The notes under the pieces: generated by a model
What the model was told of the DNA's origin: nothing
What the model saw: the letters and a program-made list of their open reading frames with translations, nothing else
Databases searched by the model: none
DNA from: Crocinitomicaceae bacterium
Lineage (GTDB): Bacteria; Patescibacteriota; Minisyncoccia; Phycocordibacterales; UBA1006
DNA: 64,000 nucleotides
NCBI GenBank assembly: GCA_047637555.1
Contig: JBLIKX010000001.1
Span: 8,294 to 72,293 of the forward strand
Reading direction: 5' to 3'
Shown here: in pieces, positions 8,202-45,713 of the stretch
Layout: each line of letters starts with the position of its first letter
Numbering within the stretch: the stretch's first letter is position 1
Program-made: the position numbers and the translations under genes

Positions 8202-9206
8202 CTAGATTTTTTCTGGTTTATAATCTTCTGGTGCATTAGCAAGATATTCTTCAAGTTGCTCTTGTGTGAGTAATCCTTCTTGAGCTCCAATATATTGAAC
8301 AACGTTCATAGAGTTAATTGGCGCCCATGATAATGCTTCAGCAACTGTTTTTCCATGTCCCAGAGCAATAGTAAATGCTGATGAAAATGAATCCCCAGCA
8401 CCTGTTCGTTCTACTGGTGGTTTTGGGTCTGGGTAAATTCGATGGAACCAATACTCATCATTATATGAATCGTAGGCATAGGCTCCATCAGGTCCATCAG
8501 TAATACATACAATTTTTGGACCAAGTTCATGCATTTGTTTCATAAGATTTTTTATATCATCTGAGTCTATTTTAAGAATCTTTTGAGCTTCTTCTACGTT
8601 ACAGAAAAACACCTCAGTCGCTGAGTAAATATCTGAAAGTTTTTCTTTACCGAGAGAAATTTGGAATGTTCCTGGTTGAAACGCCATTTTGATATTATTT
8701 TCTTTTATCCAAGTTGCAATATCTGCGTGATATTGCATCGAATCTTCTCCAACAGAAGAGAAATAGACCCACTTAGGAATGAGATCTTCTGTTTGCTTGG
8801 CAAGATCGTAGTTATAGTTCTCATGTTTAATAAGAATTGTTCGCTCTGCTTGAAAAGATAGAACATAATGATAATTAGTATTTTTACCATCTTCTACTGT
8901 TACATAATCAGTGATTACTCCATTTTCTTTTAGCGCTTCAATACATTCTTTACCGAATTGATCATTTCCTACATGTGTCATTGTCGTTGAGGTCAAACCT
9001 AATCGTGCCGCAGATACTGCTGCGTTTGGACCATTACCAACTGCCTTCACTACCTTTACGCTGTCATACGGAATTTTGTCCCCAAATCGCATTTCAAGCA
9101 TCTCAGTTCCGTTATGTTCCTCTACCTCAGCATCTTGTAATTTAATAAATGCATCAATTACGATGTCACCGATTGCTAAGAAATCGATATTTTTTTCTTT
9201 ATTCAT
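8202..9206 (-). CDS. PfkB-family carbohydrate kinase (ribokinase/fructokinase-like)
   Basis: N-terminal 'LAIGDIVIDAF' and C-terminal 'GAGDSFSSAF' PfkB signatures. Confidence 0.75.
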   Translation of the reverse strand: MNKEKNIDFLAIGDIVIDAFIKLQDAEVEEHNGTEMLEMRFGDKIPYDSVKVVKAVGNGPNAAVSAARLGLTSTTMTHVGNDQFGKECIEALKENGVITDYVTVEDGKNTNYHYVLSFQAERTILIKHENYNYDLAKQTEDLIPKWVYFSSVGEDSMQYHADIATWIKENNIKMAFQPGTFQISLGKEKLSDIYSATEVFFCNVEEAQKILKIDSDDIKNLMKQMHELGPKIVCITDGPDGAYAYDSYNDEYWFHRIYPDPKPPVERTGAGDSFSSAFTIALGHGKTVAEALSWAPINSMNVVQYIGAQEGLLTQEQLEEYLANAPEDYKPEKI

Positions 9207-14914: not shown

Positions 14915-15745
14915 TTATTTTCGGTTTAAGTAATCTTGATAATCCATTTCATTTTTTCCTTCTGGAATAATACGCTTAATGGTGAAGGAATTATTGGAAT
15001 ATTCAGCGTCAGTAATTTTCAAACGAACTTTGTTATCAAAAATAAAAGTACCAGGCCATCCATAATAGGCCCTATATTTTCGATCACGAGTGTGATTATT
15101 ATCATGGGTAATATCTCCATCTGCTTTTACAATTTTTCCACAGTATGTTGCTAGGGAATGGTCTTGTTCTATTGGTGTACAATTTCCTAAAATATATTCA
15201 GGTAAAATTTCCGCAAGAACTTTTCCTCCATCATGAGCTAGCATATGAAATAAATCAGGTTTTAAAAGATCTGACTCTAAAGGGAATTGTGACTGAGTAA
15301 TGATAGGACCTTCGTCCATTTTCAAAGTCATTTGCATGATCGTCGAACCAGTTTCATCATCACCATTAAGGATTGCTGACTCGATAGGTGAGGCACCACG
15401 ATATTTAGGGAGTAGTGATGTATGCACATTGAGCACTCCAAGCCTTGGGATGTTGAGTAGTTTTTGAGAAACAATATATCCATACGAGGCAACAATATAT
15501 AAATCATCATCCCTTTTTTCTAATTGTTCTATAATATATTTTGGTTTCTCTGGTTGCCAACATTCAATTCCGTGCTCGTCAGCCCATACCTTAACAGGTG
15601 GGGCTGTCATAATATGTTTCCGTCCAACAGATCGGTCGGGTGCTGTGATTATCAATGAAGGCATATAACCCACACTTTTTAATTCCTCGAGAACTATTAC
15701 TGAAAATTCAGGTGTTCCAAAATAAACAAATTGAGTATCTTTCAT
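14915..15745 (-). CDS. fmt: methionyl-tRNA formyltransferase
   Basis: 'VYFGTPEFSV' N-terminus and 'HTSLLPKYRGASPI' formyltransferase motif. Confidence 0.85.
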   Translation of the reverse strand: MKDTQFVYFGTPEFSVIVLEELKSVGYMPSLIITAPDRSVGRKHIMTAPPVKVWADEHGIECWQPEKPKYIIEQLEKRDDDLYIVASYGYIVSQKLLNIPRLGVLNVHTSLLPKYRGASPIESAILNGDDETGSTIMQMTLKMDEGPIITQSQFPLESDLLKPDLFHMLAHDGGKVLAEILPEYILGNCTPIEQDHSLATYCGKIVKADGDITHDNNHTRDRKYRAYYGWPGTFIFDNKVRLKITDAEYSNNSFTIKRIIPEGKNEMDYQDYLNRK

Positions 15746-15762
15746 GTGTACAGTATAGGTAA

Positions 15763-16213
15763 AAAAATAATTTCGTCATCTTACAAAAAACTGATATAAA
15801 AAATAAAGGATTTACCTTAATTAAACTACTCATTATTATTGTAATTATAGGTGTATTGGCAACTATCATAATTGGTTCGTCTGGTGATGTTTGTAATGAA
15901 GCTCTTGATTCAAAGGCAAAGACAAGACCCTCACAGACCCAAATTCAGGCTGAGCTATAATCATTTGATACAGGTTCCTATACAGAGCTTTATGATACAG
16001 ATACTCTTAGCTTTATGGTATTTCAAACTTTAGATAATGTTTGGGGCACACAAGATATTTCAAATACTAATGTCAGTGCAGGCGAGGACAATTTATAGTT
16101 CTCTGTATCACGAAGCCCTTCTAGTAAATAATACTACAGCAACACAGGAGTCAGCATTGCTTGCTGGACATGCTCATCCTGTTAACAACGATGATAAAAA
16201 TTGTAATTAAAAA
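15763..16213 (+). pseudogene. decayed type IV pilin-like gene (no start codon, multiple in-frame stops)
   Basis: Frame 1 reads '..KGFTLIKLLIIIVIIGVLATIIIG...ALDSKAKTRPSQTQIQAEL*SFDTGSYTELYDT..', the class-III prepilin N-terminus plus the conserved 'RD.KR..D..QIQ.ALE.Y..D.G.YP' region. It is interrupted by TAA at 15958, TAG at 16096, and further stops, and there is no ATG/GTG/TTG upstream before a TAA at 15760. Confidence 0.55.
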
Positions 16214-16228
16214 CACCTCTAGGTGTTT

Positions 16229-16747
16229 TTAATTTTCATTCAAGACATCATCAATCTCATCTTGGGTCATATCTCGTAATTTACGTGCCTTGTCTACAAA
16301 TAATATTCCATGTAAATGATCTGTTTCATGTTGAAAAATATGAGCTAATAGTTCGTCTGCCGATTCGGTAAATTTATTTCCATATTCATCATAGGCCTCA
16401 ATAGTAGCTTCTTTAGACCGTTCTACATCACCAACTTTCCAACGACAGGATAGACATCCTTCGCGCATCCACTTTTTTTTCTCAGATGTTTCAATGATTA
16501 CAGGGTTAATATATACCAAATGTTCTCCTTGTGGCTCTTCAAATATAAAAGGGGCAACGGTGAAAATTTGATATGATTCACCAATTTGTGGAGCCGCAAT
16601 AGCCACGCCGTCACTCTGAGTGGTGAGTGATTCATGTAAATCTGAAATAATAGATTGAATTTTTTCTGAGGTAATTTTTGTTGGATCGACATACTCAGCT
16701 TTTTGCCGAAGGACCTTTTTCCCCATCTGAATAATATCTCGTTTCAT
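16229..16747 (-). CDS. def: peptide deformylase
   Basis: 'GVAIAAPQIG', 'EGCLSC', 'HETDHLHG' PDF motifs. Start taken at MKRDIIQMGKK; the track ORF extends to 16783, into the repeat. Confidence 0.85.
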   Translation of the reverse strand: MKRDIIQMGKKVLRQKAEYVDPTKITSEKIQSIISDLHESLTTQSDGVAIAAPQIGESYQIFTVAPFIFEEPQGEHLVYINPVIIETSEKKKWMREGCLSCRWKVGDVERSKEATIEAYDEYGNKFTESADELLAHIFQHETDHLHGILFVDKARKLRDMTQDEIDDVLNEN

Positions 16748-16767
16748 ATCTCTTAGAGTAAAATTAA

Positions 16768-16946
16768 ATGAAGAAAAGAGCAATAGCGACTATTATGAAT
16801 TTATGCTGTGCGAAATGAAGAAAAGAGCAATAGCGACTATTATGAATTTATGCTGTGCGAAATGAAGAAAAGAGCAATAGCGACTATTATGAATTTATGC
16901 TGTGCGAAATGAAGAAAAGAGCAATAGCGACTATTATGAATTTATG
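16768..16946. repeat. 47-bp tandem repeat, 3 perfect plus 1 partial copies
   Basis: The unit 'atgaagaaaagagcaatagcgactattatgaatttatgctgtgcgaa' starts at 16768, 16815, 16862 and 16909. On the plus strand each unit is an ORF 'MKKRAIATIMNLCCAK' whose TGA overlaps the next ATG (ATGA). Confidence 0.9.
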
Positions 16947-16973
16947 CAAAATAAAAAACACTTTAAGCTAGGT

Positions 16974-18269
16974 TTAAAGTGTTTTTAGATAATCAGAAAG
17001 TTCAGAGATCTTAATAATTTTTTGTTTCCGTGTGCTCATGTCACGAACAATTACGGTTCCATCCATCGCTTCTTTCTGACCAAAAATTAATGTATACGGA
17101 ATACCTAATGTCTCTGCGGTTCCTAATTGTGCCCCAAGAGTATTCTTTGATAAAGAATGCTTGATTGGATAGTGCTTTTTACGCATTATTTCAATAATAT
17201 CAAAAGCTTTGGCTTTGGCTTCATATCCTAGTTGAATAAAGAAGAATTTTGCTTTTTTCCTTATTTTGGGATTATAGGTTCCTTCTTTTGAAATTTCAAG
17301 AATACGGTCTACTCCAAGTCCAAGCCCTACAGCAGGCACATCTTTGTTGTGTCCCATTGATTTTGCCAGTCCATCATATCGTCCGCCTCCCCCTAGTGCA
17401 ATTGATTGATTGCCATCTTTATCTAATGTGACATATTCAAACACAGTGTGCGTGTAGTAATCTAACCCACGAACCAGAGCATGGTCTATTTCATAGGGAA
17501 TACCTGCAGCCTCTAGGTATTCAAGTACTGACTTAAAATGTTTTTTACTGACGATATTTAAATTATCAATAATAGTTGGAGCTTGCTCGTTAATTTTTTT
17601 AGTATCAGGCTCTTTTGAGTCAAGAACACGGAGTGGATTTGTGTCGAGTCGAGCGAGGTCTTTTTCACTGAGGTATTTTTTATTTTTTCTATAAAAAGCC
17701 TTAAGTATTTTAAGATATTCTTTACGAACCTCAGGATCACCCAAGGTATTTATTTTTACAATAATCTCAGCACCAGATTCTTTTATTATTTGATATCCTG
17801 TTTGTATGGTTATGGCATCTAGTACGGCTCTCTCTGAACCAATGATTTCAAGTCCAAACTGATAAAACTGTCGGTAACGCCCTTTTTGAGGTCTTTCATG
17901 TCTAAAGAATGGACCACCATAGTATAAAAATACTGGTTGTGGTTGGTTACCCATTCCATGTTCAATGTATGATCGCATAATACCTGCTGTGCCTTCTGGT
18001 CGCATTACAAGTTTACTTCCACCTTTAGTTTTCAAGCTATACATTTCTTTCTCTACTATGTCGGTATTATCTCCAACACCTTTAACAAAAATTTCTTCAT
18101 GCTCCAGGATTGGCAGTTCAGTCCCAGAAAATCCATAGTATTCAGCAATCTCTTGTGCTTTTTCATAAAAACCTTGTTTTTGATAGAAGGTATCACCTGA
18201 AAGATCTCGCATACCTTTTGGTGCTTGAAGAAGATCTTTTTTGTTTTTTGTTTTTTTGTTTGGAGTCAT
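16974..18269 (-). CDS. hisS: histidyl-tRNA synthetase
   Basis: 'PKGMRD', 'GGGRYDGL' class II HisRS motifs, plus a C-terminal anticodon-binding domain. Confidence 0.85.
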   Translation of the reverse strand: MTPNKKTKNKKDLLQAPKGMRDLSGDTFYQKQGFYEKAQEIAEYYGFSGTELPILEHEEIFVKGVGDNTDIVEKEMYSLKTKGGSKLVMRPEGTAGIMRSYIEHGMGNQPQPVFLYYGGPFFRHERPQKGRYRQFYQFGLEIIGSERAVLDAITIQTGYQIIKESGAEIIVKINTLGDPEVRKEYLKILKAFYRKNKKYLSEKDLARLDTNPLRVLDSKEPDTKKINEQAPTIIDNLNIVSKKHFKSVLEYLEAAGIPYEIDHALVRGLDYYTHTVFEYVTLDKDGNQSIALGGGGRYDGLAKSMGHNKDVPAVGLGLGVDRILEISKEGTYNPKIRKKAKFFFIQLGYEAKAKAFDIIEIMRKKHYPIKHSLSKNTLGAQLGTAETLGIPYTLIFGQKEAMDGTVIVRDMSTRKQKIIKISELSDYLKTL

Positions 18270-36007: not shown

Positions 36008-36190
36008 TCTGTTGTTGTTTTAGTAATCTTTCTTATATATCCAGAGCGTTCAAAACTAAATTTACTAAAATAAACGGTCAATAGTTACTATTATTTTTTG
36101 TATATCTTTCATTCTAAAATAATACCTCAGAGTATTTTTCTATCGTAATCTCCTTCTTCTCTTCGTTTATTGAAGTATATGTGATAGATT

Positions 36191-44687: not shown

Positions 44688-45135
44688 AATTATTGTTTTA
44701 GGAATTTTCTCTGGTTATCCAGAAAAATTTATTGAAATAAATGAGCGCTAGTGAATATTATTTACGGTATACTCTTGGTTATAGAACTGTACCTCGAGTG
44801 TATTTCGATTTTTACAGTCACTTTCGCTTTCTTAAAAATTATGCAATTCATAATAGTCGCTGAACTCCTTTATTCATCTAACTATAGCACGTTGACACAT
44901 TTTATGACTTTGTTAATGTGGTCGGAGATTAAAAGTAGTCACTAATTAAATAATTCAAAAATCATTTTTAAATGCACTTAAATTCAGTACGACCATCAAG
45001 CATTTTTCCAAGAGTTAACTATTTTAATAAACCTCGAAAAAAGTAAATATTTCTTCATAAAACAACAATACTTCTATTTTTTTTTGAGGTATTTTTTATT
45101 TCCTTATCATGCTAAATCTGCCATTATTTACAAAT

Positions 45136-45650
45136 ATGAATACATCAAAAGAAGTTACTCTTATCGAATTTTTATTTGTTATCTCAATTATTGGATTATT
45201 ATCCACCATTATTGTAGGCAGCTTGTGCGATGATCGAGCTTGAGATATTAAACAACTTGGAAGTATTAGAACAATTCAAATGGCATTAGAAATTTATAAT
45301 TTAGATAATGGTTTTTATCCCCCACATGCTGTTTAACTTGCGTTCAACCTAATTCATCTAAGGGTGCTTAGGTATAAAGTCCATATACTTCTTGGGAAAA
45401 TCTAAGTTTTGGACTAGGAATCACATTAGTTGTTGATATTATAAATTATGAAGGTTTGAGTACCACAATTGGAGATAGACTATATAATTATGATTATTTC
45501 AAATCTGTTCCTAGTTACCCAAAAGGTTCAGGATATTTTATTAAAGTTAAACTAAAATCAGATTTTTCCTGCAACTACTTTAGATCCTGAGGTTAAACCT
45601 TGTGATACGGGTACTAAATATTATTAGGGTTCTGGTATTACCATATGAGC
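45136..45650 (+). pseudogene. decayed type IV pilin-like gene
   Basis: The ATG at 45136 starts 'MNTSKEVTLIEFLFVISIIGLLSTIIVGSLCDDRA*DIKQLGSIRTIQMALEIYNLDNGFYPPHAV*', i.e. prepilin leader, hydrophobic helix and the conserved RD.K...IR.IQ.ALE.Y..DNG.YP block, broken by in-frame TGA and TAA. Downstream there are frameshifts and stops in all frames. Confidence 0.6.
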
Positions 45651-45713
45651 ATCTCCTCTTTTACAAGTTCTCGTAGGGCTTTTTTGTTTTAATAAATTCG
45701 CTATAGTGTTTGT

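Follow-up and report, generated by a model that had tools for sequence, protein, structure and literature searches.

A perfect 47-bp tandem repeat between hisS and def, probably a young minisatellite private to one population of an uncultured Patescibacterium

A small-genome, Paceibacteria/Nomurabacteria-like Patescibacterium that has not been cultured carries, in a single population, a perfect tandem array of a 47-bp unit in the spacer between hisS and def. The reading that we consider likely is that of a real, young, population-specific minisatellite that is either neutral or, at the most, modulates def transcription mildly. The array shows neither structure nor coding signals and most likely serves no dedicated function. 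Its existence, perfection, and position are established, as is its absence from relatives. We infer the mode of its origin, its neutrality, and the assignment of the adjoining promoter.

Structure and position of the array

TRF reports an array with a period of 47, 3.9 copies, 100% matches, no indels, and a score of 364 (Table 1), and no other array with a period above 21 across the window, by which we mean the whole 64-kb stretch of DNA that was analyzed. A pattern search placed three exact full 47-bp units at 16766, 16813, and 16860, where 0 are expected from dinucleotide shuffles, while a mismatch-tolerant search of the 64-kb window returned no further copy of the unit at up to 3 mismatches. 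TRF and the pattern search together confirm the perfect 47-bp tandem repeat in the hisS-def spacer that a preliminary description of this DNA had reported. The span given there, 16768 to 16946 (3 x 47 + 38), denotes the same array in the phase of its ATG codons, with the ends clipped by 2 nt and 1 nt; the full periodic tract amounts to 3 x 47 + 41 nt.

The array has hisS and def as its neighbors and lies inside their spacer, which is exactly 226 bp long, a length that agrees with the preliminary description, as does the antisense orientation of the array's ORFs to both genes, hisS and def both being on the minus strand. Read in the sense of these genes, the array consists of four 41-nt cores and three CGCACA fillers, and the order along the spacer runs from the terminator hairpin through the cores and fillers to a TAnnCTAA box and the def ATG. 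Within the unit, the sense strand is free of ATG codons and is interrupted by stops in each of the three frames. An example of a junction k-mer of the array is TTCATTTCGCACAGCATAAA.

Table 1. Features of the hisS-def locus and of the partial match upstream of uvrB (window positions).
Feature	Position	Strand	Description
Tandem array	16766..16947	.	Period 47, 182 nt, perfect
41-nt cores, GCATAAATTCATAATAGTCGCTATTGCTCTTTTCTTCATTT	16947-16907, 16900-16860, 16853-16813, 16806-16766	hisS/def sense	Array sequence
CGCACA fillers between cores	16906-16901, 16859-16854, 16812-16807	hisS/def sense	Array sequence
Antisense mini-ORFs	16768-16818, 16815-16865, 16862-16912	+	16 aa each, MKKRAIATIMNLCCAK, ATGA overlaps
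Fourth antisense mini-ORF	16909-16971	+	20-aa variant, MKKRAIATIMNLCKIKNTLS
hisS (histidyl-tRNA synthetase, 431 aa)	16974..18269	-	ORF; Pfam tRNA-synt_His/HGTP_anticodon on identical gene calls
hisS intrinsic terminator	16943..16986	-	13-bp perfect hairpin, 16954-16966 / 16974-16986, 7-nt loop
TTGCTC, candidate -35	16778..16783	-	In def-proximal core, 17 nt upstream of TACTCT
TACTCTAA box, candidate -10 of def	16753..16760	-	5 nt before def ATG, 5 nt past array end
def (peptide deformylase, 172 aa)	16229..16747	-	Pfam PF01327, E = 3e-44, residues 3-158
17-nt exact match, AATTCATAATAGTCGCT	44845-44861	+	blastn-short; non-coding, upstream of uvrB

Several classes of repeat or structured element were considered and rejected. 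A CRISPR array is rejected, there being no unique spacers between the repeats; the units abut, as the preliminary description had correctly held. Rfam searches at the gathering threshold and at E≤10 gave nothing credible, the best match to the array region reaching 24 bits against a 60-bit threshold and the CRISPR-DR34 matches to the array reaching 15 bits against a 35-bit threshold (E = 6.6). Folding of the RNA against shuffled sequences gave z scores of -1.2 (sense) and -0.8 (antisense) for the array region and of +0.7 and -0.3 for single units, indicating no structure. Iterons or a replication origin are likewise rejected, as the cumulative GC skew rises monotonically along the window with no turn near 16.8 kb.

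Flanking genes, the hisS terminator, and the def start

The TAA stop of hisS lies within the hairpin of the gene's own intrinsic terminator, with UUUUUUAUUUU (16953-16943) next in the sense direction, and the first base of the array directly adjoins this stretch. The terminator RNA folds at -10.7 kcal/mol (z = -3.4), a stability equaled by 0 of 200 shuffles, and this hairpin upstream of the array is the only stable one in the region. The same layout of terminator over stop is present in three relatives (L070, L071, and L074).

On the other side of the array, three observations place the true start of def at ATG 16747: the deformylase domain begins at residue 3, the JGI gene calls give an identical 172-aa product, and the Def sequences of relatives align from the Met at this position. 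The preliminary description had the def ORF running into the repeat, which is correct for a mechanically extended ORF that starts at a TTG (16783), namely the TTG of the TTGCTC hexamer, and incorrect for the real gene.

The def-fmt spacer (15746-16228) is also of note, measuring 483 bp with no called gene, as against 36 to 44 bp in L071 and L074; in L070 the corresponding spacer holds a DoxX gene on the opposite strand. A DoxX pseudogene in the def-fmt spacer of the window was considered and rejected, tblastn with the L070 DoxX giving no signal there.

Independent assemblies and copy number

The repeat is real and is no invention of an assembler. Contigs from other metagenomes, found through exact-protein look-ups, match the window at 99.9% identity or more across 1.5 to 7 kb, and independent assemblies of at least nine other samples either carry the array or break at it. 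The source samples are the JGI metagenomes 3300054693, 3300054696, 3300054697, 3300054976, 3300060727, and 3300063179 and the runs SRR28416796, SRR28416802, and SRR28416806. Six other metagenomes yielded JGI contigs with the array, including its filler junctions; identical units are found in the independent contigs L001-L004, L006, L009, and L010; and the filler junction ...CATTT-CGCACA-GCAT..., which needs at least two adjacent copies, is present in contigs of seven independent assemblies. Three Logan contigs (k=31), from three further runs, end exactly k-1 = 30 nt into the array because the 30-mer at this point has two different left neighbors, which means that the underlying reads hold at least two adjacent copies.

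The number of copies is less secure. Assembled arrays hold 2.87 copies (L001/L009, L003, and L004), 3.87 copies (the window, L002, and L010), or at least 4.7 copies (L006), the last contig breaking off within the array once the 127-mer cycle has been run through exactly twice. All of the data are short-read metagenome assemblies in which copy number cannot be separated at k≤127: all 127-mers of a 2.87-copy allele are contained in a 3.87-copy allele, and the 3.87- and 4.87-copy alleles have identical sets of 127-mers. We therefore reject the assembled differences as proof of polymorphism, these states being inseparable in a k=127 de Bruijn graph. The 3.87-copy contigs do need 127-mers at all 47 phases, and the real array in those samples therefore spans at least 174 nt.

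An assembly artefact, in which the assembler would have made a tandem out of single-copy sequence, had been among the options of the preliminary description. The inseparable copy numbers and the way in which L006 stops are what such an artefact would have in its favor, and the filler junctions, the Logan breaks with their two left contexts, and the minimum length of 174 nt all speak against it, so that we hold it to be very improbable. Recovery by several assemblers from several samples, together with the Logan breaks, disposes of the artefact as regards the existence of the repeat; it stays as a caveat for the exact number of copies. More generally, copy numbers from short-read metagenomes should not be trusted for repeats longer than k + period - 1.

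Host, relatives, and origin of the array

We compared the locus with those of relatives identified through HisS, for which 8,000 homologues were retrieved; those of the nearest that carry a name are Patescibacteria. The cluster of HisS sequences at 90% identity comprises this sequence and two 45-aa fragments with no other full-length member, and the array therefore belongs to one population. Three lineages with 80 to 83% HisS identity share the hisS-def-fmt synteny with spacers of 49, 42, and 63 bp; nothing similar to the unit occurs in these spacers, which keep both the terminator over the stop and the TAnnCTAA box. In more distant relatives, the hisS-def spacer measures 2 to 60 bp or contains an inserted gene. 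Since relatives keep terminator and box without the repeat, the array is a recent, lineage-specific expansion. The recent expansion proposed in the preliminary description is thereby borne out, the unit being absent at 80 to 83% HisS identity and all carriers being at least 99.9% identical to the window. The perfect identity of the copies fits either recent expansion or ongoing homogenization.

Searches beyond these loci gave a consistent picture. A single-copy ancestral allele was sought among closer relatives in the protein collection and none was found, and TRF, run on 64 related loci that total 523 kb, returned no perfect non-coding array like this one. An exact 24-mer of the unit had 0 matches in metagenome contigs (241 M records) and in viral contigs; the source samples are evidently missing from the metagenome collection, and this result shows only that the unit is not widespread.

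Two related loci have features of their own. The end of a related Patescibacterial contig (L052:1-394) holds an imperfect tandem repeat with a period of 63/126 bp (6.4 / 3.2 copies, 81 to 87% matches), which is probably coding, its period being a multiple of 3. In a Nomurabacteria MAG that is the nearest species-representative genome, an ORF of ∼180 aa lies on the opposite strand between hisS and def (L011:5279-5902), and def is preceded by a textbook TTGTCA-N16-TATAGT-N6-ATG.

The taxonomic label of the contig deserves comment. HisS, Def, and Fmt of this locus (MFT7327862.1-MFT7327864.1, window 14915-18269) carry the NCBI label 'MAG: ... [Crocinitomicaceae bacterium]' (Bacteroidota). Among HisS homologues, metagenome proteins without a name come nearest, with 75 to 83% identity; the named ones among the best matches (∼55 to 80% identity) are almost all labeled as Patescibacteria, for example as Pacebacteria, Nomurabacteria, or Paceibacterota, and the best species-representative HisS, at 62%, is that of a Nomurabacteria MAG. 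The 'Crocinitomicaceae' label is probably wrong, and the 87-kb contig was probably mis-binned.

The length of the array suggests how it may have arisen. Every observed state measures n x 47 + 41 nt, that is, n.87 copies. A 41-bp piece of the variable sequence that separates the hisS terminator from the def box may have been duplicated in tandem with a CGCACA filler; duplication through this 6-bp filler would yield 1.87 copies of a 47-bp period, and slippage in replication or unequal recombination between identical copies would then have added whole 47-bp units. The n.87 states would follow from such a duplication of 41 bp plus a 6-bp filler and a subsequent gain of whole units; a clean 47-bp duplication gives whole numbers.

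A partial match upstream of uvrB

A blastn-short search with the unit returned nothing similar in the loci of relatives and one partial match in the 64-kb window outside the array, a 17-nt exact match (Table 1) within a gapped similarity to the unit over ∼35 nt (44845..44877, plus strand). Statistically, the match is unusual without being decisive. The length of its exact part is reached by 0 of 1,000 shuffles and by 2 of 596 real 47-mers. Of 148 real 70-mers, 4 (2.7%) attain its gapped score of 37, and an nhmmer search of the masked window with the unit gave nothing significant, this match having E = 1.1. Indels in the stretch at 44845 break the frame of the mini-ORF, and any relation to the unit is therefore at the level of DNA. 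A shared motif, a distant copy, and chance are all conceivable explanations of the match.

The match is the principal reason to ask whether the unit, or AATTCATAATAGTCGCT with the palindrome AATAG-N3-CTATT, is an element or binding motif dispersed genome-wide that was amplified at this locus, be it MITE/REP/MIRU-like or an operator. The shuffle and 47-mer counts, along with the flanking similarity, would favor this. We nonetheless regard it as quite improbable, given that 64 kb holds only one extra match, and that a partial one, with the nhmmer and 70-mer statistics just given; that the palindrome occurs just once more in the window, at 36080; that neither the metagenome nor the viral contigs contain the 24-mer of the unit; and that relatives' loci hold nothing similar.

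The match lies in a stretch of ∼1 kb upstream of uvrB (44688-45713) with no ORF longer than 64 aa, for which Rfam returned no match at E≤1. A 44-aa ORF (45109-45243) has a pilin-like segment, TLIEFLFVISIIGLL, with a Pfam N_methyl match below the cut-off (E = 0.13), and may be a decayed type IV pilin gene.

Start signals in the window

We extracted the upstream regions of 54 long ORFs in the window to characterize the start signals of this genome. A Shine-Dalgarno-like motif precedes 2 of the 54. An extended -10 (tTGnTAtAaT) stands before 18 of them, mostly exactly 6 nt before the ATG, compared with 1.1% of other ATGs. Starts that exemplify this layout without a Shine-Dalgarno motif include those of fmt (15745) and uvrB (45714) and those at 973, 4999, 8202-9206(-), and 42420. 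The pattern implies that leaderless mRNAs are probably widespread in this genome. Loss of the anti-Shine-Dalgarno motif has been reported in part of the Parcubacteria (PMC9297842), in agreement with the Shine-Dalgarno-poor window; our literature search found no paper on leaderless promoters in this group.

Antisense mini-ORFs

The plus strand of the array can be read as a chain of short ORFs, which the preliminary description had taken to be identical 16-aa ORFs in every copy, each stop sharing its A with the next ATG. Three copies do encode MKKRAIATIMNLCCAK with ATGA overlaps, in which the stop and start share TG and not only the A, and the fourth encodes the 20-aa variant (Table 1). A Pfam search of these mini-ORFs gave no match. 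The internal starts score -4.1 on the start-signal matrix, and 58% of background ATGs score as high; the first start, at 16768, scores 3.1 (TAGAGT-N8-ATG), a level reached by 5% of background ATGs.

Were these ORFs functional, a divergent plus-strand transcript would give rise to identical 16-aa peptides through termination and reinitiation at the ATGA overlaps. Four in-register ORFs with such overlaps are what this would call for; the TAGAGT-N8 before the first ATG resembles the leaderless -10-N6-8-ATG of a third of the genome's genes, and in a genome nearly without Shine-Dalgarno sequences the lack of one is no argument against translation. Against these points, an ORF within a repeat unit is copied automatically, and the internal starts are at background level. 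The signal of the first copy lacks both the TGn extension and the preferred N6, and 5% of ∼2,250 background ATGs is unremarkable. No homologue was found in relatives or in the collections searched, Pfam was silent, and the frame-breaking indels of the similar stretch at 44845 place the likeness at the level of DNA rather than protein. We give a coding cassette very little credence, and equally little to its specific form of a leaderless divergent micro-operon, in which TAGAGT (16754-16759, plus strand) would direct transcription starting at or near ATG 16768 and repeated translation of MKKRAIATIMNLCCAK. If this were nevertheless true, slippage would set the dose of a micro-peptide, and antisense transcription would interfere with the overlapping def promoter.

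We judge the mini-ORFs to be by-products of the repeat. The repeated leader-peptide cassette that the preliminary description had offered as an option is not supported, in view of the antisense orientation of the ORFs, a sense unit that is closed and without ATG, starts at background level, the lack of RNA structure, and the absence of the sequence from relatives. A leader-peptide attenuator is rejected on similar grounds, with no ATG-initiated ORF on the sense strand and a z score of -1.2 for folding of the region.

The def promoter and possible effects on expression

The array adjoins and overlaps the presumed promoter of def. The TACTCTAA box is a candidate for the -10 of a leaderless or near-leaderless def promoter: the position of the TAnnCTAA box is invariant in four aligned lineages, and in three relatives it lies 4 to 5 nt before the def ATG. 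In the window, the hexamer and spacing (TACTCT, N7) score -1.8 on the genome's promoter matrix, which is background level, and the match is weaker than those of relatives (TACACT/TAAACT/TATAGT, N6). A clear genome-type leaderless promoter for def is thus upheld only in part, as the box is conserved and yet scores at background. The hexamer TTGCTC recurs in every core, with a -10 partner only in the def-proximal one, and would be a weak candidate for the def -35, read from sequence alone.

We also observed TAnnnT on both strands near the def box (16750-16764), as TACTCT on the minus strand (16760-16755) and TAGAGT on the plus strand (16754-16759), and a likewise symmetrical TAnnCTA at the def box of L070, L071, and L074. 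This two-strand symmetry could reflect a bidirectional -10 or a small operator.

Within the array itself, a scan with the sigma-70 consensus found no site, and a 10-mer matrix for the genome-type extended -10 found none inside the units on either strand (best score, 0.5). A tandem promoter array is rejected for this reason, no unit having a promoter recognizable by the sigma-70 scan or the genome-derived matrix.

Simple-sequence contingency loci in promoters, such as the tracts between the -35 and -10 in Neisseria and Haemophilus, have units of 1 to 9 nt, and changes in the number of these units alter promoter spacing or reading frame. The array resembles such loci in that it is a repeat in a promoter region that slippage could change; unlike them, it has a 47-nt unit, which sits upstream of the -10 and does not affect the proximal -35/-10 spacing at any copy number. 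There is no on/off switch by spacing because the def box lies outside the array and the last unit always provides the same spacing, the TTGCTC-N17-TACTCT arrangement being identical at any copy number. We accordingly reject a phase-variable promoter repeat of the contingency type, copy number leaving the -35/-10 spacing unchanged and the def ATG lying outside the array. Of the slippage-prone minisatellite suggested in the preliminary description, the part that stands is the nature of the array: the intergenic tandem repeat is real, perfect, and lineage-specific, and relatives lack it. Phase-variable expression of def/fmt, which that description added, would be a putative consequence.

The sole plausible effect of the array would be a mild, copy-number-dependent change in def(-fmt) transcription. 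It could come about because the array moves the hisS terminator 94 to 141 bp or more away from def, or because it multiplies -35-like, AT-rich DNA directly upstream of the def core promoter. For fmt, an effect is unlikely since this gene has a strong leaderless-type promoter of its own (score, 7.3) and def has its own terminator-like hairpin (16205-16234).

A stronger form of this idea is that copy number tunes transcription of def, and perhaps of fmt, with slippage creating heritable expression variants, the units acting as UP-like or activating DNA, serving as additional weak promoters, or insulating def from the hisS terminator. We consider this tuning, and equally these means, unlikely. 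The array does end 5 nt from a conserved box, its last unit supplies the sole -35-like hexamer at 17-nt spacing, the def box is weaker than that of relatives, which makes compensation from upstream conceivable, and assembled copy numbers differ among samples. A precedent exists in Mycobacterium tuberculosis, where the length of a MIRU-VNTR repeat between rnc and fpg1 (Rv2924c) correlates positively with fpg1 expression (PMC2734929). That locus is like the array in being a tandem repeat of tens of bp between co-oriented housekeeping genes, directly upstream of the second. It differs in belonging to a dispersed family whose polymorphism and effect on expression were measured, whereas the unit here is essentially private and known solely as sequence. 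Weighing against tuning of def are the lack of any genome-type (tTGnTAtAaT) or sigma-70 promoter in the units on either strand, the constant -35/-10 spacing, assembler behavior that can account for the copy-number differences, and the separate signals of fmt.

Comparison with known tandem repeats

The closest counterparts of the array are bacterial intergenic VNTRs or minisatellites (MLVA loci), which likewise consist of identical units, tens of bp long and arranged head to tail in non-coding spacers, are absent from close relatives, and would be predicted to gain or lose entire units by slippage or unequal recombination. VNTR units of ∼10 to 100 bp in head-to-tail order have their equivalent in a period of 47 with 3.9 copies at 100% identity, and a recent lineage-specific origin in the 42- to 63-bp spacers of relatives that lack the unit. 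The assemblies also disagree by whole units, but the short reads here do not resolve copy number. The array differs in its host, an uncultured Patescibacterium, and we found no description of such VNTR loci in Patescibacteria in the literature.

MIRUs (mycobacterial interspersed repetitive units), which contain short ORFs with 4-nt stop/start overlaps (PMC12548453), offer a second comparison. They are similar to the array in having tandem, intergenic units of 40 to 100 bp, in their case within operons, with ORFs of this kind. The ORFs of MIRUs, however, are co-oriented and coupled with the flanking genes, whereas those of the array are antisense, with stops closing every frame of its sense strand; MIRUs are scattered over many loci and the unit is not, as far as the 64-kb window covers; and the two share no sequence similarity and occur in different phyla. 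A MIRU-type element is rejected because the unit is not dispersed within the 64 kb, its ORFs are antisense, and its sense strand lacks ATG and has stops in all frames.

Implications

The array itself matters little, as one more bacterial minisatellite that is private to one environmental population. If its copy number truly varies, it could serve as a strain marker for this population. The architecture of starts in this genome, without Shine-Dalgarno sequences and apparently leaderless, is arguably more interesting than the array. Set directly upstream of a promoter of this putative leaderless type, the array may offer a natural experiment on how DNA upstream of such a promoter affects the expression of the essential gene def in a Patescibacterium.
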